Part shown: positions 11,668-63,375 of the stretch, one piece after another
How the letters are laid out: each line of letters opens with the position of its first letter
Position numbering within the stretch: the first letter of the stretch is position 1
Source of the DNA: an uncultured Candidatus Saccharibacteria bacterium
GTDB lineage: Bacteria > Patescibacteriota > Doudnabacteria > UBA920 > O2-02-FULL-48-8
Direction: 5' to 3'
NCBI GenBank assembly: GCA_964405805.1
Contig: CAYOPE010000001.1
Coordinates: forward strand, 4,898-68,897
Length of the DNA stretch: 64,000 nt
The notes under the pieces: model-generated
Told to the model about the DNA's origin: nothing
Seen by the model: the letters and a program-made list of their open reading frames with translations, nothing else
Databases searched by the model: none
Position numbers and translations under genes: made by a program

Positions 11668-11708
11668 CGCCGAAGGCGGAGACATCTCTCCTGGAAGGAG
11701 AGAAATAA
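11668..11708. repeat. Two adjacent short GC hairpins of the CTCC-loop-GGAG family
   Basis: tctccgcc-gaa-ggcggaga and tctctcc-tggaa-ggagaga. The latter recurs almost identically at 26416-26434. Confidence 0.5.
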
Positions 11709-11722
11709 TCGGAAAGTTACTA

Positions 11723-11769: not shown

Positions 11770-11796
11770 TTAGCACTCAAAGGCTAAGAGTGCCAG
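11770..11796. promoter_or_regulatory. CIRCE operator 2
   Basis: TTAGCACTC-aaaggctaa-GAGTGCCAG. Confidence 0.9.
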
Positions 11797-11856
11797 TTTT
11801 ACCCCTCATCTGCCCTTCGGGCATCTTCTCCCGCAAGGGGAGAAGAAATAAAGAAT

Positions 11857-12585
11857 ATGGACATTAGACAACAGAAAATTTTAGCGGCAATAGTTAAAGA
11901 ATACTCAGAATCTGCCAATCCTGTAGGATCGAAAGAACTCGTAGATAAATACCACTTCTCTGAGTCCTCAGCTACGATCAGAAATGAGATGGCGAGTCTG
12001 GAGAAAGCAGGGTTTATCATGCAGCCGCACAAATCAGCAGGAAGAGTACCGACTGATAAAGGTTATCGGTACTTTGTAAATGAGCTGATGCGGAGATTTG
12101 AATTGTCAGAAAAAGAGCGCCGAGCGCTGAGGGGCGAGTTGATGAAATTGCAGTCTGCCCATGAGCAGCTAGGCAAATCTATCTCAGGTTTGCTTGCTCA
12201 AGTGTCTGGCCAAGCTGCGTTTGCACTGCTTCCCAATCAATCTTCTGCTACCGGGCTTTCTCATATTATCGGTGACCCAGAGTTTAGTGATCCGAAAACT
12301 ATGAAGCAAGTGGCGCAGGTTCTGGAAAATATTGATAAGTTAGGGCTGAGGGGCGAGGGTAGAGGAGTGAGCGCGGAAGCTATTATTGGCGCTGAGTCCA
12401 AGCTCCCTGTGCCGAAGAATTTAAGTTTAGTTGTCTCAAATGTGAAGATGAAAGATGGCAAGAAAGGTGTCATCGGCATCATCGGCCCGAAACGCATGAG
12501 CTATGCGAAGAACATGTCTTTGATTAGCTATTTAGCGAAATTGATTTCCGGGACTGCGATGTTGTTTTTGATAATTAAGGTTTAG
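11857..12585 (+). CDS. hrcA: Heat-inducible transcription repressor HrcA
   Basis: N-terminal winged helix ...QQKILAAIVKEYSESANPVGSKELVDKYHFSESSATIRNEMASLEKAGFI... First gene downstream of the CIRCE pair. Confidence 0.88.
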   Translation: MDIRQQKILAAIVKEYSESANPVGSKELVDKYHFSESSATIRNEMASLEKAGFIMQPHKSAGRVPTDKGYRYFVNELMRRFELSEKERRALRGELMKLQSAHEQLGKSISGLLAQVSGQAAFALLPNQSSATGLSHIIGDPEFSDPKTMKQVAQVLENIDKLGLRGEGRGVSAEAIIGAESKLPVPKNLSLVVSNVKMKDGKKGVIGIIGPKRMSYAKNMSLISYLAKLISGTAMLFLIIKV

Positions 12586-12672
12586 GATTCCTCCCCTAGA
12601 ATAGGGGAGGTTAGGAGGGGTAGATTCCAGGATCTACCACCCCCAGCCCCTCCTATTCTAGGAAGGGAGAAA
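12586..12672. repeat. 85-nt imperfect-palindromic GC-rich element R1 (supplies the SD for grpE)
   Basis: ggattcctcccctagaataggggaggttaggaggggtagattccaggatctaccacccccagcccctcctattctaggaagggaga. Near-identical copy at 62939-63021; partial copy at 26135-26172. Confidence 0.85.
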
Positions 12673-12679
12673 CTACAAC

Positions 12680-13147
12680 ATGCCAGACGAAATGACCTCC
12701 CCCAGCCCCTCCTTAAAAGGAGGGGAGGAACTCACAAACGAAGAACTGCTCAATAACTGGAAGCGAACAGCGGCGGATTTTGAAAATTTTAAAAAGCGCC
12801 GAGAGAGCGAGACGAAAGAATTGATTGATTATGCCAAAGAAATGACTATGCTGCGTCTCATGCCCAGCTTACAGAGCCTTGAGCAAGTGCTGAAGTATGC
12901 ACCTGACGATGAAAAGTATAAAGACTGGATCGCGGGACTCAAGGCGACTGTCATGCAGCTTGAGAAAACCATGGAAGAGCTGGGCGTGGTGAAGATTCGG
13001 ACCGTGGGCGAGCAGTTTGACCCCACTCATCACGAAGCAGTCGAAGAAAAAGAAGGCGAAAGCGGAAAAATTTTATCCGAAGTGCAGCCAGGATTTAAGT
13101 TAAATAATAAAGTAATTATCCCGGCCAAGGTGATTGTCGGAAAATAA
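12680..13147 (+). CDS. grpE: Nucleotide exchange factor GrpE
   Basis: ...AADFENFKKRRESETKE... and a C-terminal beta domain; between hrcA and dnaK. Confidence 0.88.
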   Translation: MPDEMTSPSPSLKGGEELTNEELLNNWKRTAADFENFKKRRESETKELIDYAKEMTMLRLMPSLQSLEQVLKYAPDDEKYKDWIAGLKATVMQLEKTMEELGVVKIRTVGEQFDPTHHEAVEEKEGESGKILSEVQPGFKLNNKVIIPAKVIVGK

Positions 13148-13457: not shown

Positions 13458-15308
13458 ATGCCAAAAATTATAGGAATTGACTTGGGTACATCAAACTCAG
13501 CCGCTTCAGTGATGGAAGCAGGTAAGCCTGTGATCATCCCTTCAGCAGAAGGCCAGACCATGGCTGGAAAAGCTTTTCCATCTTATGTCGCCTTCACGAA
13601 AGATAACCAGCTTCTAGTAGGCGAGCCAGCTCGTCGCCAGGCTGTGACCAATCCTGATGGCACATCGTTTGAATTCAAACGCAAAATGGGTCAGAATTTT
13701 AAATATAAACTTGGCGGCAAAGAATATGCGCCAGAGCAGCTCTCTGCTTTCTTACTTCAGAAAATTAAAAAAGACGCGGAAGCATATCTCGGCGAGCCAG
13801 TGAGCAAGGCTGTGATCACTGTGCCTGCGTATTTCGACGATTCGCAGAGACAAGCTACCAAGAATGCCGGCGAGATTGCAGGCCTGGAAGTCGTGCGTGT
13901 GATCAATGAGCCCACTGCAGCGGCATTTGCCTATGGACTTGATAAATCTGGCAAGGATCAGAAGATTTTGGTATTCGACTTGGGTGGTGGCACGCTGGAT
14001 GTGACGATCATGGACTTCGGCGAGCATGAAGGTCAGGCAACTTTTGAAGTTCTCTCGACTTCAGGGGACACGCAGCTTGGCGGAAAGGACATGGACCAGG
14101 CTTTGATTGATTTTGTGGTCTCGGAATTTAAGCGCGAGACTGGCCTGGATCTCACTAATGACAAAATGGCCATGAATCGAGTACGTGAAGCAGTCGAGAA
14201 AGCGAAGATCGAGCTTTCTACCACTCTGGAAACTGATTTGAACCTGCCGTTTATCTCAGCTGATGCTGGTGGACCGAAACATTTGAATCTGAAACTCACT
14301 CGAGCCAAACTCGAGGAACTCGTAAAGCCGATTGTGGCGCGCATGAAGCATCCAGTAGAGCAGGCTCTGACTGATGCCAAGCTCACACCATCTGATATTG
14401 CCAAGATAATTTTGATCGGCGGTCCAACTCGCATGCCAGTGGTTCAGAAATTTGTGGAAGACTACATCGGCAAGCAGGTAGAGCGCGGCATTGACCCTAT
14501 GGAAGCAGTGGCTAAGGGCGCTGCGGTGCAGGCTGGTGTTCTCTCCGGTGATGTCCAAGGCAAAGAAATTCTTTTGCTGGATGTCACGCCTCTGACTTTG
14601 GGCCTGGAAACCTTGGGCGGTGTTGCTACACCATTGATTGAGCGCAACACCACGATCCCAACTTCCAAGTCGCAGACTTTTTCTACTGCTGCTGACAACC
14701 AAACCTCAGTTGAAATCAATGTGGTCCAAGGCGAACGGCCATTTGTCCATGACAACAAGTCACTTGGCAGATTCCACCTGGATGGAATTCCACCAGCTCC
14801 TCGCGGCGTGCCGCAAGTCGAAGTAACATTTGATATAGATGCGAACGGAATCCTCAAAGTTACAGCGAAAGACAAAGCCACAGGCAAATCTCAGAACATC
14901 ACCATCACTGGATCCAGCAATTTGTCCAAAGAAGAAGTGGAGCGCATGAAAAAAGAAGCTGAAGCGCACGCAGAAGAGGATCGAAAGAACAAAGAAGTCG
15001 TCGAGACTCGTAACCAAGCAGATACTTTGATTTCTGTGTCTGAAAAAACCCTGAAAGATGCAGGTGATAAAGTCGCGGAGGCTGATCGCAAAGATGTGGA
15101 AGTGAAAATCCAGGCTTTGAAAGATGTAAAAGATAAACCAGAGCTGGATGCCATCAAAAAGGCGATGGATGAGCTCTCAGCTGCGATCCAGAAAGTGGGT
15201 GCTGCTATGTATCAAAGTCAGGGTTCAGGGGACAGGGGGCAGGGGGCAGATGCAAGCCCTAAACAAGAAGGGCCAGTGGATGCTGAAGTAGTTGACGAGA
15301 AAAAATAA
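13458..15308 (+). CDS. dnaK: Chaperone DnaK (Hsp70)
   Basis: [18 protein letters not shown] and VILVGGPTRMP-type motifs; 616 aa. Confidence 0.97.
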
Positions 15309-15317
15309 TTAATCGGC

Positions 15318-15395
15318 TACGAAGTACGAAATGGGTACGAAAATACGAAAGGTTATCTCTGTTCGTACTTTCGTAAAGATTCGTAATTTCGTAGA
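15318..15395. repeat. TACGAAA inverted-repeat element, copy 1
   Basis: gtacgaaaatacgaaa...gttcgtactttcgta...attcgtaatttcgtaga. Second copy at 50157-50225. Confidence 0.7.
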
Positions 15396-15403
15396 TAAAT
15401 CCC

Positions 15404-18122: not shown

Positions 18123-18123
18123 A

Positions 18124-18165
18124 AAAATCGGCTGGTCTTGGAATTTGCAGTCTTCCAAAACCAGC
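18124..18165 (-). terminator. 40-nt hairpin terminator, copy 1 of 3 identical copies
   Basis: aaaatcggctggtcttggaatttgcagtcttccaaaaccagc. On the minus strand it is a stem-loop followed by GATTTTT; downstream of the 18191-18958 gene. Confidence 0.65.
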
Positions 18166-18190
18166 GGACAATCAGCTGTGCCGCAGCCGA

Positions 18191-18958
18191 TTAGTGAGTC
18201 CCAGGCGACTTCGTTTTCGGTATTCGACCGCCGAGTTCGAGAATGTGTCCCGCTTGTTCAGTGGTCAATCCGAGGACTGAAGGTTTGAGCTGCTCTGTGG
18301 TCAGCCATTTGTATAGATTTTGAAATGCGTAAGAGAACCTTGCGAGGAGCGTCACGTCATCATTGTTGGTGCTTTTTTCTTCTTGAAGCCAGGCTTGGTA
18401 GGTTTCTGGACCCTTTTTGGCTGCTTCGACCAGCCTGATTTCTTTGAGCTCTTCGTCGTCCGCGATATTCCATTCTCTCTTCAAGTCAACCTGAAGCTCT
18501 TTTTTCAGTTCTTCGATCCTATAGGACAGGTCGCTGTTGCTTTGGGTCCACAGAGGAATCGGATTGTCGTAGCTGAATGCTTCTCGAGGCTCAAACGTGC
18601 AGTGAACGAAGTCCTCATACCTGTCGGCGTATCTCATCCTGATCGTCAACTTTTCGAGTAGAGTTCCACCGTTTTTTTTCCGAAGCCCATTCAGTTCTTG
18701 AGCCGTGGTTTTGAGACTTTCGAACAGGGTCTTGTCTTCGTTCGTTTTTTGTACGAGCACGGACGTCGCGGCATAGCGATCGAAGTACGAACAGATGCTC
18801 TCGCTGAGCGGTTCGGTTCGGACATTCTGTAGAAAGATTGCCAGCCGCGCGATCATCTGCTCACGTTCTTTGTCTTTTCCCTGCGCCGAGGTTGGCACGG
18901 CAGCGAACCCGACGAACAACAGAACCAGCGCGATCAGTCCGATCAGTCGTTTCGTCAT
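18191..18958 (-). CDS. Secreted hypothetical protein, paralog 1 (signal peptide MTKRLIGLIALVLLFVGFAAVPTSAQ)
   Basis: Signal peptide plus a 229-aa mature part. Shares a conserved ICSYFDRY / FCSYYERW motif with the neighbouring paralog. Confidence 0.7.
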   Translation of the reverse strand: MTKRLIGLIALVLLFVGFAAVPTSAQGKDKEREQMIARLAIFLQNVRTEPLSESICSYFDRYAATSVLVQKTNEDKTLFESLKTTAQELNGLRKKNGGTLLEKLTIRMRYADRYEDFVHCTFEPREAFSYDNPIPLWTQSNSDLSYRIEELKKELQVDLKREWNIADDEELKEIRLVEAAKKGPETYQAWLQEEKSTNNDDVTLLARFSYAFQNLYKWLTTEQLKPSVLGLTTEQAGHILELGGRIPKTKSPGTH

Positions 18959-19015
18959 GTCATCCTCCCTTCGGATGTGCAGGAGTTATAGCATGAAGAC
19001 GATGCTTTGGTCAAT
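18881..19015 (-). repeat. 5' module, copy 1: ~137 nt identical to 19722-19857
   Basis: Identical sequence covers the signal-peptide coding region, RBS (GGAGGATGACATG in reverse complement) and ~57 nt of 5' UTR. Confidence 0.85.
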
Positions 19016-19016
19016 A

Positions 19017-19059
19017 AAAATCGGCTGGTCTTGGAATTTGCAGTCTTCCAAAACCAGCC
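19017..19059 (-). terminator. 40-nt hairpin terminator, copy 2
   Basis: Identical to 18124-18165; downstream of the 19074-19799 gene. Confidence 0.65.
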
Positions 19060-19073
19060 GTTGCTGCCTGCTT

Positions 19074-19799
19074 CTATGAGCTGGGTTTTCTGAATCCTGG
19101 CGCGGGCATGCTGTGACATTCCATGATTCGCTCAAGTTCCTGCGGTTTCAATGACCAGATCGATGGCGAAACTTGAAAGCGATGATCAGTCATCAGATAC
19201 CAGATCCAGAATGATTCTTTGCAACCTTTTTCGCCTGACTTCCACTGGTTGCGCACGTTCTGAATGTCTTTTATAGACTGCTGGTACAGGTGATCGTTCA
19301 CTTCTTCGATTGACGGAATGTCTTTTGACGAGTAGCTAAGAGCGCTTTCTTTTATCAGGCGATTGAGTAGCAGCGCTACCTCGTACACATTGTCTGTGTA
19401 CAAGGAAAGATCTTCCACGGTTCCTGGTGAAAGTGGCGTTTGAAATCTGCACGTGATCGGGAGGCCATATCCGTACAGTTCGCGTGGTAGTTTTTTGGCC
19501 AATTCACTAGCGGCTGTGCGCTTTGCCAATTCTGCACCGAGATCAGAAACTCCCACGCTTTTCTGCAATTCCTGGTTGAGATTGAGACGGTCGAACAGAA
19601 CCTCGGCTGCTCGCCATCGTTCGTAATAGCTGCAGAATTCGTTGGTTAGGGGTTGCAGTTCCAGGTTCGCGACGATGTTTTTGAGATACGCCACTTGATC
19701 GAACTTCTCTCCGTTACAGCATTGCGCCGAGGTTGGCACGGCAGCGAACCCGACGAACAACAGAACCAGCGCGATCAGTCCGATCAGTCGTTTCGTCAT
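19074..19799 (-). CDS. Secreted hypothetical protein, paralog 2 (identical signal peptide, divergent mature part)
   Basis: The first 26 aa and upstream DNA are identical to paralog 1; the mature 215 aa have diverged. Confidence 0.7.
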   Translation of the reverse strand: MTKRLIGLIALVLLFVGFAAVPTSAQCCNGEKFDQVAYLKNIVANLELQPLTNEFCSYYERWRAAEVLFDRLNLNQELQKSVGVSDLGAELAKRTAASELAKKLPRELYGYGLPITCRFQTPLSPGTVEDLSLYTDNVYEVALLLNRLIKESALSYSSKDIPSIEEVNDHLYQQSIKDIQNVRNQWKSGEKGCKESFWIWYLMTDHRFQVSPSIWSLKPQELERIMECHSMPAPGFRKPSS

Positions 19800-19876
19800 G
19801 TCATCCTCCCTTCGGATGTGCAGGAGTTATAGCATGAAGACGATACTTTGGTCAAAATTTAATTATAAGCTATAAT

Positions 19877-20526
19877 TGTGGAGGGCGCCCCTCCACATAT
19901 GCAATATCGAGATTATAAACAATTTTTTGAAGGCGGAGTTTATCATATTTATAGTCGCGGCCATAACAAAATGGCAGTTTTTCGAGATACTGAAGACTAT
20001 AAATTTTTCCTGCAGCGCCTAGCGGAAATATTAAGCCTTAAGCCTTCTAAAAGCAGATGGCTGAGACCTTTGCCTAAGGGTTCGTTTACGATTTTATGCT
20101 ATTGCCTGATGCCGAACCATTTCCATTTTATAATTCAGCAAGAAACCAAGCTTCCGGTTTCTAAAATAATAGGGAAGTTGTTGACTAGCTACGGGATTTA
20201 TTTTAATAAAAAGTACCAGCAAGTCGGAACAATATTTCAGGATAGATTTATGTCTAAAGAAATTAATAATGATGAGTATTTAGTTCCTTTATCTGCATAC
20301 ATTCATAAGAATCACGCTAAATTTCTTTCTTGGAGATTTTCCAGTTTGGATGACTATATTAAAGGCGACAAAGAACTAATCGTTGACTCGACTTTGATAC
20401 TAAGTATGTTCAACAAAGATCGTCATCGATATTATAAATACATAAAAAGTTATAATAAAACTAAGGAAGATTTGATTACGGATTTAAAATTCGACGAATA
20501 AACGATGTGGAGGGCGCCCCTCCACA
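19877..20526 (+). mobile_element. REP-flanked RAYT (IS200/IS605-like Y1 transposase) unit
   Basis: Identical 21-bp perfect palindromes TGTGGAGGGCGCCCCTCCACA at 19877-19897 and 20506-20526 bracket the transposase gene. Confidence 0.75.
19899..20501 (+). CDS. REP-associated tyrosine transposase (RAYT / IS200-like TnpA)
   Basis: HuH motif LMPNHFHFII and catalytic Tyr in SAYIHKNH (YIHxNP-like); ~200 aa. Confidence 0.8.
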   Translation: MQYRDYKQFFEGGVYHIYSRGHNKMAVFRDTEDYKFFLQRLAEILSLKPSKSRWLRPLPKGSFTILCYCLMPNHFHFIIQQETKLPVSKIIGKLLTSYGIYFNKKYQQVGTIFQDRFMSKEINNDEYLVPLSAYIHKNHAKFLSWRFSSLDDYIKGDKELIVDSTLILSMFNKDRHRYYKYIKSYNKTKEDLITDLKFDE

Positions 20527-20528
20527 TA

Positions 20529-20572
20529 AAAAATCGGCTGGTCTTGGAATTTGCAGTCTTCCAAAACCAGCC
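20529..20572 (-). repeat. 40-nt hairpin element, copy 3 (abuts the 3' REP)
   Basis: Identical to copies at 18124 and 19017. Confidence 0.6.
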
Positions 20573-20782
20573 GTGGTCAGCCAGAAATTTGAGCGTCCTA
20601 CGTTCGGATTCGTTCGAGCTTTCGCTGCCCTCGCCTGAGAGGTTGATCAAGATTGCTCAAGAGGTGGGTGGGCAGTTCGACAGGCTTGCCGCCGTTTTTG
20701 AATACAAGCCTGCCGTCTCGCCACTCCAATTCTTTCCCTGGGTGGCGCATCTGAGCCCAACGCACCGCGAAGTTGCGGTCTC

Positions 20783-25352: not shown

Positions 25353-26435
25353 ATGAACCGAGGTTTCTGGGATAAACTAAAAAAACCGATAATGGCTCTC
25401 GCGCCCATGGCGGATGTGACGGATGCGGTTTTCAGGCAGATAATCGCCAAGTACGGCAAGCCTGCCCGCCATGCCTCGGACGAGGCTCATCAACAAGGTG
25501 TGGCAGGCGGGCCTGACGTATTTTTTACAGAATTCGTGTCCACGGACGGGCTTATGTCAGAAGGACGCAAGCGATTGCTGGTGGATTTTTGGTATGGCGA
25601 AAACGAGCATCCGATAGTGGCGCAGATTTTCGGATCCGTACCAGAAAAATTTGAGCAAGTAGCGAAGATGATCGTGGAGCTGGGGTTTGACGGCGTGGAT
25701 ATAAACATGGGCTGCCCAGTAAAAAAAGTGCTCAATCAGAATTCCTGCTCAGCCCTGATCCGAACGCCGAAGCTGGCGCAAGAAATCGTGGAAGCGACCA
25801 AGCGCGGTGCTGGCAATCTGCCAGTATCCATAAAAACCCGAATTGGATTTAACAAAATTGACATTGAGAACTGGATCCCAACGCTTCTTCAGACGAAGCC
25901 AGCGGCACTGACTGTGCATTTGCGCACTGTGAAAGAAATGTCTTTGGTCCCAGCTCACTGGGAGCTCATGCCGAGGATTGTGGAGCTTGTAAATCAGCAG
26001 GCTCCGGAAGATCGCCCTCTGATTCTGGGCAATGGAGATGTGAAGACGGTGACAGAAGCCGAAGAAAAATGCGCGCAGACAGGTGCGGACGGGGTGATGA
26101 TAGGGCGAGGGATCTTTGGCAACCCGTGGCTTTTCTCCTCCCCTAGAATAGGGGAGGTTGGGAGGGGTAGAACCTATACTCCGTCAGTATCCGAAAAACT
26201 TCGAGTCATGATTGAGCACACGAAACTGTTTGAAGAGAAATTTAAAGGCTTAAAAAATTTTGACATCATGAAAAAGCACTACAAAGCCTATGTCAACGGC
26301 TTTGATGGCGCGAAGGAACTGCGCACGAAATTGATGGAAGCGAAAACGGCTGCTGAAGTAGAAAGTTTAGTTCAAGAATTTCTAGTTGCCACCTCTCTGC
26401 CGCTGCGCGGCATCTCTCCTGGGAGGAGAGAATAA
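25353..26435 (+). CDS. dus: tRNA-dihydrouridine synthase
   Basis: ALAPMADVTD...MGCP...IGRG motifs. Carries an in-frame 36-nt copy of the R1/R2 repeat (26135-26172, peptide SSPRIGEVGRGR). Confidence 0.88.
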   Translation: MNRGFWDKLKKPIMALAPMADVTDAVFRQIIAKYGKPARHASDEAHQQGVAGGPDVFFTEFVSTDGLMSEGRKRLLVDFWYGENEHPIVAQIFGSVPEKFEQVAKMIVELGFDGVDINMGCPVKKVLNQNSCSALIRTPKLAQEIVEATKRGAGNLPVSIKTRIGFNKIDIENWIPTLLQTKPAALTVHLRTVKEMSLVPAHWELMPRIVELVNQQAPEDRPLILGNGDVKTVTEAEEKCAQTGADGVMIGRGIFGNPWLFSSPRIGEVGRGRTYTPSVSEKLRVMIEHTKLFEEKFKGLKNFDIMKKHYKAYVNGFDGAKELRTKLMEAKTAAEVESLVQEFLVATSLPLRGISPGRRE

Positions 26436-26544
26436 TCTGAAAGTGACTATCGCAATGCTGAACTCGTTTCAGCATCTCAAATAAGATCCTGAAACCCGCC
26501 TGACCGGACGGGCAGGTAAATTCAGGATTGCTGGTTATGTGAGA

Positions 26545-26586
26545 CCTCCTCTTAATCTCCTCCTTAAAAGGAGGAGAGATAACTGC
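26545..26586. repeat. 42-nt GC-rich palindromic repeat, copy 1 (exact second copy at 58004-58045)
   Basis: cctcctcttaatctcctccttaaaaggaggagagataactgc; contains the hairpin ctcctcc-ttaaaa-ggaggag. Confidence 0.85.
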
Positions 26587-26650
26587 AGTTAAAAACCCCT
26601 CCCTGCCTGCCGGCAGGCAGGCTTTCAAGGAGGGGCAGGGGAGGTCTCTA
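26583..26650. repeat. gcagttaaa-CCCCTCC...AAGGAGGGG-N-AGGGGAGGT repeat, copy with internal palindrome insertion
   Basis: Related to 57604-57643; here interrupted by gcctgccggcaggc. Confidence 0.6.
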
Positions 26651-49710: not shown

Positions 49711-50154
49711 ATGCGTTGCCCTAATTGTTCGAATGAAGACACAAAAGTTTTAGACTCTCGCCCCATCTCTGATGGGATGGCTATTCGGAGGCGCCGGGAA
49801 TGTACGAAATGTGGGGCTAGGTTCTCCACTCACGAGGAAATGGAACTGCTGGATCTGACTGTGGTCAAGCGTGATGGCAGCACCCAGGCCTATATGAGAG
49901 AGAAAATCGAGAATGGGATCAGAAAAGCTTTTGAGAAAAGGCCTCTGAGCCACGATGATTTCCATGCTTTGATCGTCGGCATCGAGCAGGACATCCAGAA
50001 AACCGGAAAAAGTCAGGTCGCGACCAAAGAAATCGGCAACATCGTCATGAAGCGCATAAAAAGTCGGGATCAAGTCGCTTACATCCGGTTTGCAAGTGTG
50101 TATCGCAAGTTTGCAGACGTAGAAGAGTTTGTCAGAGAAGCAAAAAAACTATAA
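49711..50154 (+). CDS. nrdR: Transcriptional repressor NrdR
   Basis: Zn ribbon MRCPNCSNEDTKVLDSR...CTKCGARF followed by an ATP-cone. Confidence 0.9.
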   Translation: MRCPNCSNEDTKVLDSRPISDGMAIRRRRECTKCGARFSTHEEMELLDLTVVKRDGSTQAYMREKIENGIRKAFEKRPLSHDDFHALIVGIEQDIQKTGKSQVATKEIGNIVMKRIKSRDQVAYIRFASVYRKFADVEEFVREAKKL

Positions 50155-50156
50155 TC

Positions 50157-50225
50157 TACGAAATTACGAAATAGTACGAAAATACGAAATGTTCGTACTT
50201 TCGTAGAAAATTCGTACTTCGTAGA
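50157..50225. repeat. TACGAAA inverted-repeat element, copy 2
   Basis: gtacgaaaatacgaaatgttcgtactttcgtagaaaattcgtacttcgtaga, between nrdR and nrdJ; compare 15318-15395. Confidence 0.7.
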
Positions 50226-50254
50226 TAGTAACAAGAATTAACTAAGAACAAACC

Positions 50255-52909
50255 ATGCAACCAAAAGAAAACCTACAAGAAAGAAAAGTAAATGCACTCG
50301 CTGAGCTTGGCGAAAAGATTTTCCTCGATCGCTACGCCATTAAGGACGCGAAAAAGGAAAGTCTCAGTGTAGGTGATACTGCGGTGGTATGTGTGAACCT
50401 AAAAACCGGGCAGCGTGAGATCGGGGTACTGGAAAAAATCGACAGAGAAGCACGCGAAGTAGTAGTCAAGCTTCGTGATGGCACTCTCGAAACTCGATCT
50501 ATTGATCATGTGGACAAGCCATTGGAAACTATGCCAGAACAGATGTTTGAACGCATTGCCAAACACATTGCATCAGTTGAAAACACAGATGAATTGAAAC
50601 AAGAATGGGAAGGACGATTTCGCGAGCTCATGAATGACTGGAAATACGTGCCAGCAGGAAGAATTTTTACAGGCGCAGGCACTGGCCAGAATCTGACTTT
50701 TTATAATTGTTACGTCATACCTTCCCCGCGCGATTCGCGAGGTGGAATTTTCGAGACCCTGGGCCAAATGGCGGAAATCATGTCACGCGGCGGCGGGGTA
50801 GGAATCAATGTCTCGACACTGCGTCCTCGCTACGCTTATGTGAAAGGCGTGAATGGCCGTTCTTCTGGCTCTGTGTCCTGGGCATCACTTTATTCATTTG
50901 TCACTGGGCTCATTGAGCAGGGCGGATCCAGACGCGGAGCGCTGATGTTGATTTTAAACGTCTGGCATCCTGATGTCGTGGATTTTATCAATTCGAAAAA
51001 AGAAGCCGGCAAGATTACGAATGCGAATATTTCTGTAGGAATCACAGATGATTTCATGACTGCGGTGAAGAATGACCAGCCGTGGGATCTAGTTTTTCCA
51101 GACACTTCAGATCCGATGTACCGCGATCGCTGGGATGGAAACATCGGTCGCTGGAAGGAAATTGGTGGTAAAGTCATCAAGCACAAGACGGTTCGTGCCA
51201 AAGACATTTGGGAAAATATTATTTCCTCTGCATGGTCTTCTGCTGAGCCTGGCATGTATTTTATTGATCGAGCGAATTACTACTCCAATTCTCACTATTT
51301 CGCAGATCTGCCATGCACGAATCCTTGTGGCGAGCAGCCGCTGCCTGCCTGGGGCGTGTGTAACCTCGGTCACATCAACCTTGCCAAGCACGTGGATTAC
51401 AGTAAAAAAGATGTGGACTGGAATAAATTAAAGAGAACTGTGCAGGATGCAGTCAGATTTCAGGACAATGTCATTGATGCGACACCTTATTTCTTTGATG
51501 AAAATTATCAGCAGCAAATGAGTGAGCGCAGAGTTGGCATGGGCACGATTGGTCTTGCTGAAATGCTGATTCATTTGGGACTCCGTTATGGTTCTCCTCA
51601 AGGAGTTGAGTTTATCGATAAACTTTACCAGTTTATTTCTATCACAGCCTACGAAACTTCAGTTGATCTCGCTCGTGAAAAGGGTGCGTTTAGTAAATTC
51701 GAAGTTGATAAGTTTTTGCAATCAGGCTTCATGCAGCGAATGCCAGAATACATTCGCCATCTCGTGCGCCAATACGGAATTCGAAACGTAACTATTTTGA
51801 CACAAGCACCGACTGGGACTGTGGGAACAATGGTAGGAACATCCACAGGCATCGAGCCGTTCTTCTCTTGGACATATTTCAGAAAATCTCGACTCGGTGT
51901 GCATCAGGAGCACATCAAACTTGCCAAAGACTGGCTGGATGCGCATCCAGGCGAATCTCTGCCTGACTATTACGTCACAGCTATGGAACTGACTCCAGAA
52001 GAGCACGTGCGTGTGCAGGCTGCTGTGCAGCGCTGGACTGATAGCGCTATCTCAAAAACTGTAAATGCGCCAGAAAACTATACTGTGGAGCAAACTGCGA
52101 AACTCTATGAGTTGCTGTATGATTTGGGAGCTAAAGGCGGGACGATTTACAGAGATGGCTCACGTGATGAACAGATCTTGGCTGTAGATCATAAAAAATT
52201 GGGCAAAGATGCGGCTGAACAAGTGGAGAATGGTAAAGCTGTGATCAAACAGGAACAGCCTGTTCAACCAATACCAACTCCTGAACCTGCCCCAGCACCT
52301 CAAATGCCACCGCAGCCTCAGATGAACTCAATCCAACCCCGCAAGCGACCAGATGTCATGCAAGGATCGACTTATAAAGTCGCGACAGCTTATGGTAATC
52401 TTTATGTCACGGTCAATGAAGACGAGTATGGACCATTTGAAGTTTTCTCGCAGCTTGGCAAGGCTGGTGGCTTCTTCGGCGCTCAGACTGAAGCGATTTG
52501 TCGCATGATTTCTCTGGCACTGCGCTCAGGAATTAGTTTGCCTACAGTTGTCGAGCAGCTCAAAGGCATCCGCGGTCCGGATCCCATGTTCCACAATGGT
52601 GAGCGCATTTTGTCGCTCCCAGATGCGATTGCAAATGTCCTAGAAAATCACATTAAGCGCGGACAGAAAGAACTCCAGCTGGATTTTTCAAAGATAGAAA
52701 AGTCTTCCTTCGCTAAAGCTTCGGAGGACAAGCAACCCGTCTTTCAAGCAGTAACCAAAGAAGTTCATTCTACCGGTTCCGCGTTTGTCACCACACAGAA
52801 GGCAGTTGCTGACTTTGGCGATGCGCCAGTGTGTATGGTTTGTAGCAACATGCTTCGCATGGCAGAAGGTTGCATGAAATGTGAGTACTGCGGGTGGAGT
52901 AAATGCTGA
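50255..52909 (+). CDS. nrdJ: Class II (adenosylcobalamin-dependent) ribonucleotide reductase
   Basis: Active-site NPCGEQPLPAWGVCNLGHINL and a C-terminal Cys-rich tail CMVCSN...CMKCEYCGWSKC; 884 aa. Confidence 0.88.
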   Translation: MQPKENLQERKVNALAELGEKIFLDRYAIKDAKKESLSVGDTAVVCVNLKTGQREIGVLEKIDREAREVVVKLRDGTLETRSIDHVDKPLETMPEQMFERIAKHIASVENTDELKQEWEGRFRELMNDWKYVPAGRIFTGAGTGQNLTFYNCYVIPSPRDSRGGIFETLGQMAEIMSRGGGVGINVSTLRPRYAYVKGVNGRSSGSVSWASLYSFVTGLIEQGGSRRGALMLILNVWHPDVVDFINSKKEAGKITNANISVGITDDFMTAVKNDQPWDLVFPDTSDPMYRDRWDGNIGRWKEIGGKVIKHKTVRAKDIWENIISSAWSSAEPGMYFIDRANYYSNSHYFADLPCTNPCGEQPLPAWGVCNLGHINLAKHVDYSKKDVDWNKLKRTVQDAVRFQDNVIDATPYFFDENYQQQMSERRVGMGTIGLAEMLIHLGLRYGSPQGVEFIDKLYQFISITAYETSVDLAREKGAFSKFEVDKFLQSGFMQRMPEYIRHLVRQYGIRNVTILTQAPTGTVGTMVGTSTGIEPFFSWTYFRKSRLGVHQEHIKLAKDWLDAHPGESLPDYYVTAMELTPEEHVRVQAAVQRWTDSAISKTVNAPENYTVEQTAKLYELLYDLGAKGGTIYRDGSRDEQILAVDHKKLGKDAAEQVENGKAVIKQEQPVQPIPTPEPAPAPQMPPQPQMNSIQPRKRPDVMQGSTYKVATAYGNLYVTVNEDEYGPFEVFSQLGKAGGFFGAQTEAICRMISLALRSGISLPTVVEQLKGIRGPDPMFHNGERILSLPDAIANVLENHIKRGQKELQLDFSKIEKSSFAKASEDKQPVFQAVTKEVHSTGSAFVTTQKAVADFGDAPVCMVCSNMLRMAEGCMKCEYCGWSKC

Positions 52910-54727: not shown

Positions 54728-55264
54728 TTGCGTATCGGCAATATGGCTTATTTCTTAGTTTTTTTTGGGGCACTACTTAGAGTCATTCCACATGCGGCGA
54801 ATTTCGTGCCTATTGGCGCTATCGCTCTTTTTGGCGGTGTGTATCTCAGAAAGCGTGAAGCGCTTGTGCTGCCGCTTGCTGCCATGATTTTGTCAGATAT
54901 TTTTATTGGCTTTGATTCGCTCGAGTCGAGATTGACTATTTACGGATGTTTTTTGCTCAGTGGTTTGATCGGACTGACGATTCGTAACCACAAAAGTATT
55001 TGGACAGTAGTCGGCGGAAGCTTGCTTGGCTCGACGTTATTTTATTTGATCACAAACTTTGTCTGGGTTTATTCTACAAAAATGTATCCGCACACCTGGG
55101 CAGGCCAAATGGCGTCTTACACCAATGCCTTACCGTTTTTCCGAAACACAGTCATGAGTGATTTGTTTTACGTCGGAGTTTTGTTTGGAAGCTATGAATT
55201 AGTTAGACATTTTCAAAATAAAACTTCCCTCTCCTTTGAAGGAGAGGGATCGAGGGAGAGGTAG
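54728..55264 (+). CDS. Small polytopic membrane protein, possibly an ECF-transporter S-component-like (CbrT-like) protein
   Basis: ~6 TM helices in 178 aa, adjacent to cobO and DUF4430. The 3' end overlaps a GGAG hairpin repeat. Confidence 0.4.
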   Translation: MRIGNMAYFLVFFGALLRVIPHAANFVPIGAIALFGGVYLRKREALVLPLAAMILSDIFIGFDSLESRLTIYGCFLLSGLIGLTIRNHKSIWTVVGGSLLGSTLFYLITNFVWVYSTKMYPHTWAGQMASYTNALPFFRNTVMSDLFYVGVLFGSYELVRHFQNKTSLSFEGEGSRER

Positions 55265-55267
55265 ATT

Positions 55268-55612
55268 ATGGTCAAATTGTCTCGAGTTATGGTGGCTCGT
55301 AGTAAAGATTTAAGATCGAGGCAAACTCAGTGGGAAGAGATTCTCTGGGACCATTTAAGAGCTAATCATTTTGCCGTTAAGTTTAAAAGACAAGTAGTAA
55401 TTGGCGCATATATTTTCGATTTTGGCGCCAAAAGAAAAAAGTTATTGATAGAACTAGATGGAGCCGGGCATCGCGGTAAGGGAAAGATTGCAGATGAAGA
55501 AAAGATAAAATATGCCCTATCAAGAGGTTTTACTGTTCTGAAGTTTTGGAACAGTGAGATTGAAAGATCGCTAGATAAGGTTTTAGAAGAAATTTTTCAA
55601 AAGATACAGTAG
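55268..55612 (+). CDS. DUF559 (Vsr-like endonuclease fold) protein, paralog 1
   Basis: ...FKRQVVIGAYIFDFGAKRKKLLIELDGAGHRGK...GFTVLKFWNSEI matches the DUF559 pattern. Confidence 0.8.
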   Translation: MVKLSRVMVARSKDLRSRQTQWEEILWDHLRANHFAVKFKRQVVIGAYIFDFGAKRKKLLIELDGAGHRGKGKIADEEKIKYALSRGFTVLKFWNSEIERSLDKVLEEIFQKIQ

Positions 55613-55675
55613 CACCCTCTCTCCCAACCTCTCTCCCTGAAAGGGAGAGAGGAGTTCTAAACGGTAGATATTTTT

Positions 55676-57601: not shown

Positions 57602-57650
57602 CCCGCAGTTAAACCCCTCCTTTTAAGGAGGGGTAGGGGAGGTAGAGTTT

Positions 57651-58058
57651 ATGCATCGTACAATAGGTTTTCGAAAAACTATCCCGATCAGAAGACAGCT
57701 CCGCAGAAACCTCACTGCTCCTGAAAAAGTATTCTGGGAACAAATTGCAAACCGACAGTTTCAAGACCTAAAGTTTGTAAAACAACATGGTATCGGTCCC
57801 TATATCGTAGACTTTTGTTGCCGAGCTTTAATGCTGATTATAGAAATAGATGGCGATAGTCATGCTACAAACTTTGGGATATCTCAAGACAAAGTCAGAA
57901 CCGGATATTTAGAAAACCTAGGCTACAAGATTATTCGCTATAATAACCACGATGTCATCAATAACCTCGATGGAGTGTTCCAAGATCTGAAAAGCAAAAC
58001 CGACCTCCTCTTAATCTCCTCCTTAAAAGGAGGAGAGATAACTGCGCGGGAGTCCTAA
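57651..58058 (+). CDS. DUF559 (Vsr-like endonuclease fold) protein, paralog 2
   Basis: ...KFVKQHGIGPYIVDFCCRALMLIIEIDGDSH...GYKIIRYNNHDV. The C-terminal 14 codons translate the 42-nt repeat (58004-58045). Confidence 0.8.
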   Translation: MHRTIGFRKTIPIRRQLRRNLTAPEKVFWEQIANRQFQDLKFVKQHGIGPYIVDFCCRALMLIIEIDGDSHATNFGISQDKVRTGYLENLGYKIIRYNNHDVINNLDGVFQDLKSKTDLLLISSLKGGEITARES

Positions 58059-61959: not shown

Positions 61960-61996
61960 CCAAGAGGCGGGACGCCTTGCGTCCCGCCCTTTTCTT
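61960..61996 (+). terminator. GC-rich rho-independent terminator
   Basis: ggcgggacgccttgcgtcccgcc-cttttcttttg. Confidence 0.7.
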
Positions 61997-62021
61997 TTGC
62001 CAATTTTGCTATAATAGACCC

Positions 62022-62939
62022 ATGCCTGAATTACCTGAGGTCGAAACCGTGGTTTCTGAACTGCGGTCGAAGCTGAGAAATAAGAAAATAAAAGAAGTCA
62101 GGGTGCTGCTGCCGAAAATGGTCGCAATCGGTCCGCATACTTTACCCAATCTGAGACGGACCGATTCGCAGACAGCAGCAGACTTTGCGCGGACACTGCG
62201 GAATCAGAAAATTTCTGGTGTTTCTCGTCGTGCTAAAATGATTATCATTGATCTTGCAGGTAAGTACGCCATCTTGGTCCATCTTAAGATGACGGGCCAA
62301 CTGATTTTTTTCGACAAAAAACATTTGGACAAGCAAATCAAGCTTTTGAATATTGAAAACACGAAAGCGGTCCACCTGCCTGCCAAGTCCACGCATGTAA
62401 TTTTTGATTTTGCGGATGGATCGAAACTTTTTTACAATGACTTTCGGCAGTTTGGGTATCTGAAATTGGTCACAGATAAAGAATTGTCACAGGTTTCGGA
62501 GCTGCAAGGCTATGGACCAGAGCCTTTGGCCGCAAATTTCACGTACGTGAAATTTGCTGAACTGCTGAAGAAGAGATCCAACGCGCTGATCAAGCCGTGG
62601 CTTATGGATCCCACGATCATCGCAGGCATCGGCAACATTTATTCTGACGAAATTCTGTATTTTGCCAAAGTCCGGCCAGACAGACGAGTGAAAAGTTTGT
62701 CTGGGACTGAGAAAAAATTGGTTTTCAAAGGCATAAAAAAGATTTTGCAGGATGCAGTAAATCATTACGGCTCATCAGTCGGGGACTTTGTCAGACCCTC
62801 AGGCGACTGGGGCACGTATGGTCTTCTTCATAAGGTTTACGGCCGCGCCGGGGAAAAGTGTAAAAGATGTGGTACTATAATAAAGAGCATGAAATTTAAT
62901 GGCAGGACGGGTTGCTACTGCCCGCGAGAACAGAGGTAG
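62022..62939 (+). CDS. mutM: Formamidopyrimidine-DNA glycosylase
   Basis: MPELPEVETVV N-terminus (catalytic Pro2/Glu3), H2TH region, C-terminal zinc finger CKRCG...CYCP. Confidence 0.9.
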   Translation: MPELPEVETVVSELRSKLRNKKIKEVRVLLPKMVAIGPHTLPNLRRTDSQTAADFARTLRNQKISGVSRRAKMIIIDLAGKYAILVHLKMTGQLIFFDKKHLDKQIKLLNIENTKAVHLPAKSTHVIFDFADGSKLFYNDFRQFGYLKLVTDKELSQVSELQGYGPEPLAANFTYVKFAELLKKRSNALIKPWLMDPTIIAGIGNIYSDEILYFAKVRPDRRVKSLSGTEKKLVFKGIKKILQDAVNHYGSSVGDFVRPSGDWGTYGLLHKVYGRAGEKCKRCGTIIKSMKFNGRTGCYCPREQR

Positions 62940-63021
62940 GTTCCTCCCCTAGAATAGGGGAGGTTAGGAGGGGTAGATTCCAGGATCTACCACCCCCAGC
63001 CCCTCCTATTCTAGGAGGGGA
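62939..63021. repeat. 85-nt palindromic GC-rich element R2 (supplies the SD for the 63031 ORF)
   Basis: Differs from R1 (12586-12672) at only 2-3 positions. Confidence 0.85.
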
Positions 63022-63030
63022 GAAAAAACC

Positions 63031-63375
63031 ATGCAAGATGATAAATGGGAAGCGCTAAAAGAAGAATTGAAACGCAAGTTCAAAGTCGAAGATCAGCACT
63101 TTGAAGATTTGATTACGTCCACTGCGGATGGGCCAGTTATTTCTGGCAAGGTCGAAGTGATTATCTTCGAAACTCCCATGGGTAAGATCAAACTTGTGCG
63201 TGAAAGCAAACCCGTGGTCCTGGGCAAAAAAGAATTCTACAGTCATCAGCAGGGAAAAGCCGCCAGGACTGAGTACCAATTTTCAGACACAGAATTTTCT
63301 CACAAGATCAAAGCATATAAATTAGATGATGAAGACGAATGGAAGGAGATGGATGCTGCAGCATTTGGAAATTAA
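63031..63375 (+). CDS. Hypothetical protein
   Basis: ATG 8 nt after GGAGGGGAGA, which is contributed by repeat R2. Confidence 0.5.
   Translation: MQDDKWEALKEELKRKFKVEDQHFEDLITSTADGPVISGKVEVIIFETPMGKIKLVRESKPVVLGKKEFYSHQQGKAARTEYQFSDTEFSHKIKAYKLDDEDEWKEMDAAAFGN

Follow-up and report, generated by a model that had tools for sequence, protein, structure and literature searches.

A palindromic repeat between stop and start codons of a Doudnabacteria genome and its probable origin in DUF559 endonuclease cassettes

Two copies of a palindrome in operon spacers

The DNA analysed here, a stretch of 64,000 nucleotides from an uncultured Candidatus Saccharibacteria bacterium placed within the Doudnabacteria (contig CAYOPE010000001.1, positions 4,898 to 68,897; hereafter the window), contains two copies of an 85-nt imperfect palindrome, one in the spacer between hrcA and grpE and the other in the spacer between fpg and an open reading frame (ORF) of 114 aa, ORF114, for which no Pfam family was matched. 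Each copy lies between a stop codon and the next ATG and, as pointed out in a first-pass annotation of the sequence, has a Shine-Dalgarno (SD)-like sequence, GGAGGGGAGA or GGAAGGGAGA, in its 3' arm. The features of the two loci are the following.

11857-12585, + strand: hrcA (Pfam), upstream of copy 1, with 2 nt between its stop and the element
12588-12672, + strand: copy 1, an 85-nt doublet that occupies the hrcA-grpE spacer
12588-12624: unit A of copy 1, TTCCTCCCCTAGAATAGGGGAGGTTAGGAGGGGTAGA
12625-12632: centre of copy 1, 8 nt, TTCCAGGA
12633-12672: unit B of copy 1, TCTACCACCCCCAGCCCCTCCTATTCTAGGAAGGGAGAAA
12680-13147, + strand: grpE (Pfam), downstream of copy 1
13458-15308: dnaK, after grpE
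61977-62939, + strand: fpg/mutM (Pfam), upstream of copy 2
62941-63025, + strand: copy 2, an 85-nt doublet that occupies the fpg-ORF114 spacer, with the same centre as copy 1
63031-63375, + strand: ORF114, downstream of copy 2

Both copies start 1-2 nt past a TAG stop (hrcA, 12585; fpg, 62939) and end 7-9 nt ahead of an ATG (grpE, 12680; ORF114, 63031). Their near-identity was confirmed, but the two or three differences initially counted come down to one: the copies share 84/85 positions, the 8-nt centre TTCCAGGA included, and the sole mismatch is a G-to-A change within the 3' purine arm of copy 1. The core 13-mer CCCCAGCCCCTCC has four matches in the window, against 0.05 by chance. No U-tract was found after the stem, the copies continuing as GAAACUACAAC and GAAAAAACC, and an intrinsic terminator was ruled out because the stem lacks a trailing U run. 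A 1.7-kb Logan contig (L080), the only one with ORF114, begins inside the element at CCCCAGCCCCTCC (L080 1-37), as would be expected if the repeat breaks short-read assemblies.

The position of ORF114 after fpg is kept in the related contigs examined, and all of the ORF114 homologues that carry an organism name belong to Doudnabacteria or Patescibacteria. In the closest relative found (L064/L065; ORF114 90% identical at the amino-acid level), the fpg stop abuts the ORF114 ATG as TAAATG, with GAGCAGAAATAA or CAGAAATAA on the upstream side of the junction and ATGCAAGATGAC on the downstream side, so that a spacer of 0 nt in this relative compares with 91 nt in the window. The abutting codons mark the L064/L065 site as an empty one, and the element was inserted where the stop of one gene meets the start codon of the next. 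The same junction holds an unrelated 78-nt palindrome in L066; in L067-L069, the remains of a DUF559 gene (63 aa, PF04480) and, after them, a B-type hairpin module are found there.

Hairpin units and DUF559 cassettes

Each doublet is built of two units. Unit A consists of a pyrimidine arm, a 3-nt loop, a purine arm, a second purine run that mirrors the first, and TAGA; unit B has the reverse-complement architecture, that is, TCTACC, a pyrimidine run, a pyrimidine arm, a loop, a purine arm and AA. Because every unit ends in GGAGG(GG)AA and starts with the complementary CCTCC arm, an inserted element brings the downstream gene an SD that is masked by the element's own arm. Aligned copies read TTCCTCCCCTAGAATAGGGGAGG-TTAGG(A/T)GGGGTAGA in their 5' part, followed by a free centre of 4-72 nt, and TCTACC-N-CCCCTA(R)-CCCCTCCT-loop-AGGAGGGG-AA in their 3' part; the ends of the element are conserved as TTCC...GGAA and the centre is variable. 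Many units (GGGGTAGA...TCTACC) have a conserved GTAG/CTAC tag at their inner border, 3' of hairpin A and, as CTAC, 5' of hairpin B, a polarity opposite to that of the tag of the repetitive extragenic palindromic (REP) sequences of E. coli.

The same units were found around genes. A full-length form exists in which two end units of ~37 nt surround a DUF559 (PF04480, Vsr-fold PD-(D/E)XK) endonuclease gene of ~115-135 codons, and two such cassettes lie in the window.

55224-55656, + strand: full-length cassette, flavour 3; unit A TCCCTCTCCtttgaaGGAGAGGGAtcGAGGGAGAGGTAGATT, DUF559 ORF 55268-55612, unit B CACCCTCTCTCCCAACCTCTCTCCctgaaagGGAGAGAGG
57607-58045, + strand: full-length cassette, flavour 2; unit A ACCCCTCCTtttaAGGAGGGGTAGGGGAGGTAGAGTTT, DUF559 ORF 57651-58058, unit B GACCTCCTCTTAATCTCCTCCTtaaaAGGAGGAGAGATAACTGC

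Both genes matched the Pfam family with E = 3e-30, the DUF559 domain of the second one stopping near 57995. On their 5' side they have the pyrimidine-arm/purine-arm hairpin, the second purine run and TAGA(G)TT(T)ATG, and on their 3' side a pyrimidine run and then a hairpin. The relationship to the doublet is seen in L014 and L028, in which TTCCTCCCCTAGAATAGGGGAGGTTAGGTGGGGTAGAA is followed by 24 nt, an intact DUF559 ORF of 119 aa running from ATG to TAG, a single g and then TTCTACCACCCCTAGCCCCTCCTATTCTAGGAGGGGAA: the 85-mer of the window corresponds to an L014-type cassette minus everything between TAGA and TCTA. The same layout was observed with homologues of 63-65% identity in L056 and L063, and L056 has a truncated gene-less A/B remnant beside the full copy.

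In the cassettes, 4-9 nt separate the DUF559 start from the second purine run of unit A, a distance at which this run would serve as the SD of the gene, and the host gene that follows has the purine arm of unit B at the position of an SD. Cassettes were located in conserved operons and in the orientation of the host genes, as in paaD-paaZ (L077), pntAA-pntAB (L078), SelR/msrB-DUF559-NUDIX (L063) and between the subunits of a pyruvate:ferredoxin oxidoreductase (L056). The closest solved structure to DUF559 is 3HRL (E = 9e-14), and a published classification places the family together with Vsr and I-Bth0305I, a homing endonuclease (PMC3424549).

Taken together, these data make it probable, at roughly 0.8, that two ~37-nt hairpin units make up the 85-nt palindrome as a non-autonomous element without a gene, similar to a miniature inverted-repeat transposable element (MITE) or to a REP doublet forming a hairpin (REPIN), and that it represents the ends of a DUF559 cassette. 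A mobile MITE- or REP-like origin had already been suggested by the first-pass annotation, and it is supported here by the presence/absence polymorphism, by the many copies found elsewhere and by the full-length form with its DUF559 gene.

The distribution of the units agrees with such an origin. The 32-nt 5' module had matches in four contigs of metagenome-assembled genomes (MAGs) of the Candidate Phyla Radiation (CPR), two from Doudnabacteria and one from Saccharibacteria, and the 21-nt unit A hairpin CCTCCCCTAGAATAGGGGAGG had matches in 4 MAG contigs and in 50 metagenome stretches, to which groundwater assemblies contributed many; most of this hairpin family is found in CPR bacteria. A search of IMG/VR with the unit A hairpin returned 0 matches, and a viral origin is thus not supported. 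Doublets of 80-118 nt were found at ~20 distinct loci. With two inverted units, a short spacer and a single hairpin, the A-centre-B arrangement is that of a REPIN, and dispersed near-identical copies with terminal inverted repeats, polymorphic for presence and accompanied by a longer relative with the same ends, are what is expected of a MITE. Centres are common to the copies of one genome and differ between genomes, copies 1 and 2 of the window having one and L002/L003, from a single MAG, another. As judged from these shared centres, the miniature itself has evidently been copied within the source genome. Two other classes of element were considered and rejected, namely a CRISPR or tandem array, because the copies are dispersed, and an integron attC-like site with conserved arms and a variable centre, because there is neither a GTTRRRY core nor a cassette array and the flanking genes are housekeeping genes.

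A further inverted repeat, AGGACTTACGCG...CGCGTAAGTCCT, encloses the doublet in ten of the loci (L013, L020, L024, L026, L033-L035, L042, L046 and L047), most of them contigs from Hainich groundwater; together with additional inner arms, GGGGTATGGGTGAGGG...CCCTCACCCATACC, this gives layered palindromes of ~130-170 nt.

Conservation within the doublet falls on its local hairpins. The B stem CCCCTCCT/AGGAGGGG is invariant over 13 different loops, the loop-closing pair covaries (A-T, G-C, C-G), and the loops of the B units vary freely and are not kept complementary to the loop of the A unit. Since the B loops vary independently of the A loop, the local hairpins, rather than the 85-nt helix, appear from the alignment to be the conserved structure, and the long hairpin was discarded as the selected structure.

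The proposed check of whether copies always lie at -8 of a start codon did not bear this out as a rule, only 9 of 51 distinct copies in public contigs being within 25 nt of a same-strand start. Orientation follows the sense of the upstream gene in 23 cases vs 7, and chaperone genes come after 3 of the ~10 start-adjacent copies (grpE twice, groES once), which leaves some probability for a host-selected role; all three counts derive from crude ORF calls, and the last two from loci that are non-independent.

Among known systems, the REPIN-RAYT and REP-BIME systems of Pseudomonas and E. coli (RAYT, REP-associated tyrosine transposase; BIME, bacterial interspersed mosaic element) are, with free-standing homing endonuclease genes, the closest analogues. 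In these systems, short palindromic units also occur singly, as inverted doublets and as mosaics, they are mostly extragenic, a small gene is bracketed by inverted units, and gene-less doublets far outnumber the gene; the doublets are described as folding into one hairpin of ~80-110 nt (PMC3337134, PMC3116915). The present units differ in that the flanked genes code for a DUF559 PD-(D/E)XK protein of the Vsr fold instead of the cognate Y1/HUH transposase, in their strictly polypyrimidine-then-polypurine arms with an SD/anti-SD pair, and in a third, mirror-repeat segment, the units being found also in frame inside genes.

Free-standing homing endonuclease genes of the phage mobE/seg type resemble the cassettes in another respect. 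They are small nuclease genes between or within host genes and in the same orientation, with an upstream hairpin that masks the ribosome-binding site (RBS) and a 3' end that keeps the downstream start signal, and their 5' hairpin persists after loss of the gene (PMC2677866); the Vsr-like homing genes of fractured genes provide a precedent for a Vsr-fold catalytic domain (PMC3424549). This layout, with a hairpin over the RBS and the downstream start signal kept, was found at 55224-55656 and 57607-58045 of the window and in L063, L077 and L078. In contrast, known homing endonuclease genes home to one cognate site and have neither matching inverted flanks nor dispersed miniatures, and the DUF559 proteins here, of ~115-135 aa, are devoid of a separate DNA-binding module.

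Transcribed MITEs include Correia/NEMIS of Neisseria, ERIC/IRU and YPAL of enterobacteria, BOX/RUP/SPRITE of pneumococcus and RPE of Rickettsia. Like the present element, they are imperfect palindromes of ~80-150 nt in operon spacers that are co-transcribed (PMC2267715, PMC3049150), they give long RNA hairpins able to alter mRNA processing or translation, and RPEs occur in frame inside coding sequences. Their sequences are unrelated and they are not known to have a built-in SD at each 3' end; no DUF559 partner of such elements is reported in the literature searched.

Single units and mosaics are present at four further places of the window.

11803-11848, + strand: B-type unit, fourth flavour (CCCCTCATCTGCCCTTCGGGCATCTTCTCCCgcaagGGGAGAAGAA), directly 5' of the hrcA ATG
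12696-12732, + strand: solo B-type unit, second flavour, in grpE codons 6-18 (TSPSPSLKGGEEL)
26131-26175, + strand: solo unit A (5' half of the element), 45 nt, in frame within dus (FSSPRIGEVGRGRT)
26543-26650, + strand: gene-less B-then-A mosaic, flavour 2

The module ahead of hrcA recurs in L069, at the end of the decayed DUF559 gene of the fpg/ORF114 junction. The B-type unit of grpE is composed of ACCTCCCCCAG, the hairpin CCCCTCCTtaaaAGGAGGGG and AGG. The fragment in dus had been noticed before as an in-frame piece of 36 nt; it is real and in frame, but its length is 45 nt. It codes for SSPRIGEVGRGR in a variable linker that follows the NPWLF motif, and it adds ~12 residues relative to the closest Dus homologues, in agreement with a plain insertion. 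In the mosaic, the initial 44 nt are exactly those of 58002-58045 and are followed by the linker AACTGCAGTT and an A-type unit (CCCCTCC...GGAGGGGCAGGGGAGG).

The B-y-A order, in which y is the linker, was also seen in L004 (6040-6157) and ahead of groES in L009/L044, and y often contains a CTGCAG-centred palindrome (AACTGCAGTT). The dus gene has two more palindromic intrusions besides its unit A, three in total: an in-frame insertion of 17 residues (PARHASDEAHQQGVAGG) at 25464-25514, from another palindrome (CCTGCCCGCCA...TGGCAGGCGGG), and a C-terminal extension through the hairpin CTCTCCTgggAGGAGAG at 26405-26435, a hairpin that recurs at 11685-11710.

Several observations weigh against an origin of the palindrome from DUF559 cassettes by insertion of a mobile miniature. 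No clear target-site duplication was recognised when the filled and the empty site were compared, the flanks having diverged (90% amino-acid identity of ORF114), and no flavour-1 DUF559 gene was found within the 64-kb window. The unit inside grpE leaves the length of the protein unchanged with respect to the GrpE of L004, sequence having been replaced rather than added, which is a poor fit to simple insertion. The hrcA-grpE spacer of L004 has B-then-A where the window has A-x-B, and a single insertion does not account for this spacer. Mobilisation might alternatively be due to a Y1 (IS200-like) transposase that is encoded in the window, and the bias in orientation leaves room for a role at the RNA level. 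Finally, nuclease or transposition activity of DUF559 proteins on the units is putative.

Predicted RNA folds and competing explanations

The element folds with predicted energies of -52.1 and -55.9 kcal/mol in the two copies (z = -4.9 and -4.7 vs shuffles), within a range of -49 to -56 kcal/mol that varies with the flanks included. The SD is paired in the minimum free energy and centroid structures of both copies, and the SD, previously proposed to pair with the 5' arm, is indeed base-paired in all predicted folds. The long hairpin (-49.2 and -52.2 kcal/mol) compares with -40.7 and -47.3 kcal/mol for a fold of three local hairpins, and the SD is masked in both. Temperature-dependent partition functions computed from 10 to 90 C gave costs of opening the SD at 30, 37 and 42 C of 12.2, 10.9 and 9.9 kcal/mol in copy 1 and of 11.4, 10.9 and 10.6 kcal/mol in copy 2; the probability of an open SD is 1e-9 to 1e-7 across 30-42 C, and melting is predicted only above ~80 C. 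The G-to-A change of copy 1 weakens the local B hairpin, which is predicted at -8.6 instead of -15.2 kcal/mol and lies just 5' of grpE, a gene that is essential in model bacteria, and on these modelled energies the weakening would be compatible with selection to relieve masking.

As a Vsr-fold PD-(D/E)XK nuclease, DUF559 offers itself as the candidate enzyme that may propagate or maintain the units, through transposition or through homing-like repair of a nick or break. With its SD at the 3' end, the element would be able to persist between stop and start codons in compact operons, and the CCTCC arm would mask this SD by analogy with free-standing homing endonuclease genes. Exposure of the SD might then be brought about, independently of temperature, by the ribosome terminating 1-2 nt before the stem or by RNase III acting on the ~37-bp stem, either of which is made plausible by the start of the stem 1-2 nt past the upstream stop.

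An element of selfish origin could, in addition, have been co-opted as a translational-coupling or mRNA-processing device that unmasks the SD, so that translation of the downstream gene is tied to that of the upstream one. The geometry of six tight copies (both of the window, L002, L003, L036 and L004) fits such a device, as do the preference for the sense of the upstream gene and the weakening of the B hairpin before grpE by the one mismatch between copies 1 and 2; moreover, stop and start codons already abut in the TAAATG of the empty site, which suggests that coupling predates the insertion. Against co-option, the local B hairpin can re-mask the SD once the 5' arm is unwound, and most family members elsewhere are not placed between a stop and a start. 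Argued from geometry and predicted folds, co-option is possible, if on balance doubtful.

It is improbable that each 85-mer is the scar left in place by deletion of a DUF559 gene and that the miniature is immobile. The cassette decaying in situ at the fpg/ORF114 junction of L069 and the truncated remnant of L056 would fit such scars, and hairpins that outlast a homing endonuclease gene have been documented (PMC2677866). However, the unlinked copies of the window are 84/85 identical and have the same centre, as L002 and L003 have theirs, and independent deletions would not produce identical centres at unlinked loci, even if gene conversion between scars could yield them.

Another proposal, which we regard as very unlikely, is that the units are REP/REPIN sequences moved by a RAYT-type Y1 transposase and that DUF559 is only a neighbour or passenger. 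The window has one candidate.

19878-20501: Y1_Tnp gene, 207 aa, IS200-like/RAYT-like (PF01797, E = 1.7e-10)

This gene is bracketed by palindromes, TGTGGAGGGCGCCCCTCCACA, that contain GGAGGG/CCCTCC, and hairpin-forming doublets with GTAG/CTAC at their inner borders recall REPINs. Nevertheless, the flanking palindrome, (A/T)TGTGGAGGGCGCCCCTCCACAT, has its purine arm first and a different sequence, and it occurs twice in the window, at the ends of the Y1 gene itself (19877-19897 and 20505-20527) and nowhere else, whereas the genes that the A/B units flank, in more than 12 loci from at least 6 phyla, belong to DUF559 and not to Y1.

The first-pass annotation had also offered a structured leader, possibly an RNA thermometer. 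As a regulator selected by the host, such a hairpin would keep the SD of grpE and ORF114 concealed and free it on heat shock. In its favour, all predicted folds pair the SD within the 3' arm, grpE belongs to the heat-shock genes, and units related to the element stand ahead of hrcA (window), grpE (L004) and groES (L009/L044); a paired SD 5' of a heat-shock gene is also the arrangement of the ROSE, fourU and cssA-type thermometers. Known thermometers, however, are weak, mismatch-rich helices that melt at 30-45 C. The present helix is far too stable to behave in this way: in the comparison of 30 and 42 C that had been proposed as a check, the SD stays closed at both temperatures (P(open) <= 1e-7), and opening it still costs 9.9-10.6 kcal/mol at 42 C. 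At gathering thresholds, Rfam returned two tRNAs only over the whole window, and at E <= 10 over 12500-12800 it returned only sub-threshold hairpins resembling miRNA precursors and no bacterial cis-regulator. The structure is not kept at orthologous leaders, being missing or different at the L064-L069 junctions and reversed in the L004 spacer, the identical element precedes an unrelated gene, and the majority of the family is not beside a start codon. In addition, a CIRCE-like operator at 11770-11796 (TTAGCACTC-N9-GAGTGCCAG), with a further GAGTGCTAA half-site at ~11742, lies 5' of hrcA and places the hrcA-grpE-dnaK operon under conventional HrcA control. A thermometer was therefore rejected as highly improbable.

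Other repeats of the window were recorded as well. Two mutually inverted TACGAA/TTCGTA blocks of ~80 nt lie at 15317-15397, after dnaK, and at 50154-50227, between nrdR (49711-50154) and an 884-aa ORF at 50255. A 46-nt hairpin, AAAAATCGGCTGGTCTTGGAATTTGCAGTCTTCCAAAACCAGCCG, occurs three times (18123-18168, 19016-19061 and 20529-20574), and a 133-nt repeat occurs twice (18882-19014 and 19723-19855) inside adjacent paralogous minus-strand ORFs (18191-18958 and 19074-19799) that had no Pfam match.

DUF559 loci of distant taxa and mirror symmetry of the units

DUF559 loci from distant taxa were sampled by look-ups of exact proteins and by tblastn of plasmid and chromosome records. With homologues included, thirteen further loci were inspected, and units flank the gene in 11 of them (L053, L056, L063, L070, L071, L072, L074, L075, L077, L078 and L079), in part in E. 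coli ycjD, and not in Azospirillum. The loci of the distant taxa are these.

L070, Nitrospira lenta: unit A nearly the same as the CPR unit, TTCCTCCCCtttgtaaaGGGAGGccaGGTGGGGTAGAG
L071, Francisella opportunistica: B-y-A either side of the gene
L072: B-y-A either side of the gene
L074, Pseudanabaena plasmid: TTCCCCCCagaattGGGGGGctAGGGGGG and CCCCCCTAGCCCCCCaattctGGGGGGAA, with additional gene-less copies
L075, PCC 7002 pAQ6: units present
L076, Azospirillum: no flanking units at the DUF559 locus
L077, Deinococcus: paaD/paaZ neighbours; B upstream, A downstream
L078, Sphingomonas: pntAA/pntAB neighbours; A upstream only
L079, Neisseria gonorrhoeae: A-type units either side

In E. coli K-12 (L073, NC_000913.3 1351000-1351840), a B-like pyrimidine/purine hairpin unit forms the end of ycjD, after which part of the gene's 3' end is present a second time; the locus is degenerate and the upstream hairpin is different. 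About 150 nt 3' of ycjD lies a G-rich palindrome of A-type layout, CCCCTCGCCCCTCTGGGGAGAGGGTTAGGGTGAGGGG, made up of a pyrimidine arm, a purine arm, TTA and a second purine run, which is present in 5426/5426 complete E. coli genomes with a median of 16 copies per genome. We presume this palindrome to be BoxC, an assignment that the copy number fits. BoxC is described as a 56-bp repeat with 22-32 copies in E. coli and of unknown function (PMC2267715). The association of DUF559 genes with these repeats thus recurs across phyla, and neither an earlier description of it nor any connection of palindromes, repeats or mobile elements with DUF559 or YcjD was found in the literature searched.

A further property common to the units is that their third segment is the mirror image, and not a direct repeat, of the adjacent arm. 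In unit A, the pyrimidine arm Y1 is CCTCCCC, the purine arm R1 is GGGGAGG and the second run R2 is GGAGGGG (GGGGAGG-tta-GGAGGGG); in unit B, Y1' is CCTCCCC, Y2 is CCCCTCC and R2 is GGAGGGG (CCTCCCC-tag-CCCCTCC). Among 14 representative units that differ in sequence, which include window 12590-12624, 55226-55264 and 57613-57645 as well as L055, L071 and L077-L079, the mirror match equalled or surpassed the direct match in 14/14 and surpassed it in 10/14; permutation within each unit gave p = 0.012-0.78, and Fisher combination gave ~1e-4 with units that are non-independent. A mirror repeat beside its Watson-Crick partner conforms to the sequence rule for an intramolecular triplex of the H-DNA type, and as a structural hypothesis the candidate pairing would be G*G:C and A*A:T in unit A and C+*G:C and T*A:T in unit B.

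On this basis, we tentatively propose, while holding it to be rather unlikely in full, that DUF559 proteins, YcjD included, are dedicated nucleases of a hitherto unrecognised cross-phylum class of palindromic repeats, whose recognition structure is possibly a triplex. If true, these systems would be functional analogues of REPIN-RAYT with a Vsr-fold nuclease, and their miniatures would include the CPR element and probably the BoxC of E. coli.

DUF559/YcjD proteins are annotated merely as endonuclease domain-containing or are misnamed very-short-patch-repair endonucleases. The present results link this very large family of uncharacterised function to a concrete DNA partner, and because matching units lie beside DUF559 genes in CPR bacteria, Nitrospira, cyanobacteria, Deinococcus and several Proteobacteria, that function may be tested with oligonucleotides. 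They also suggest an origin for orphan repeats such as BoxC, on our presumption as to its identity, and they replace an attractive thermometer story on grpE with a tested alternative. For annotation, the units matter in that they give rise to spurious peptide extensions of the PSP...GEG type and to in-frame insertions in grpE, dus and the C-termini of DUF559 proteins, and in that they break short-read assemblies. For the biology of these organisms, the element would represent a selfish sequence that is tolerated in the tightly packed operons of CPR bacteria by means of the SD at its 3' end.

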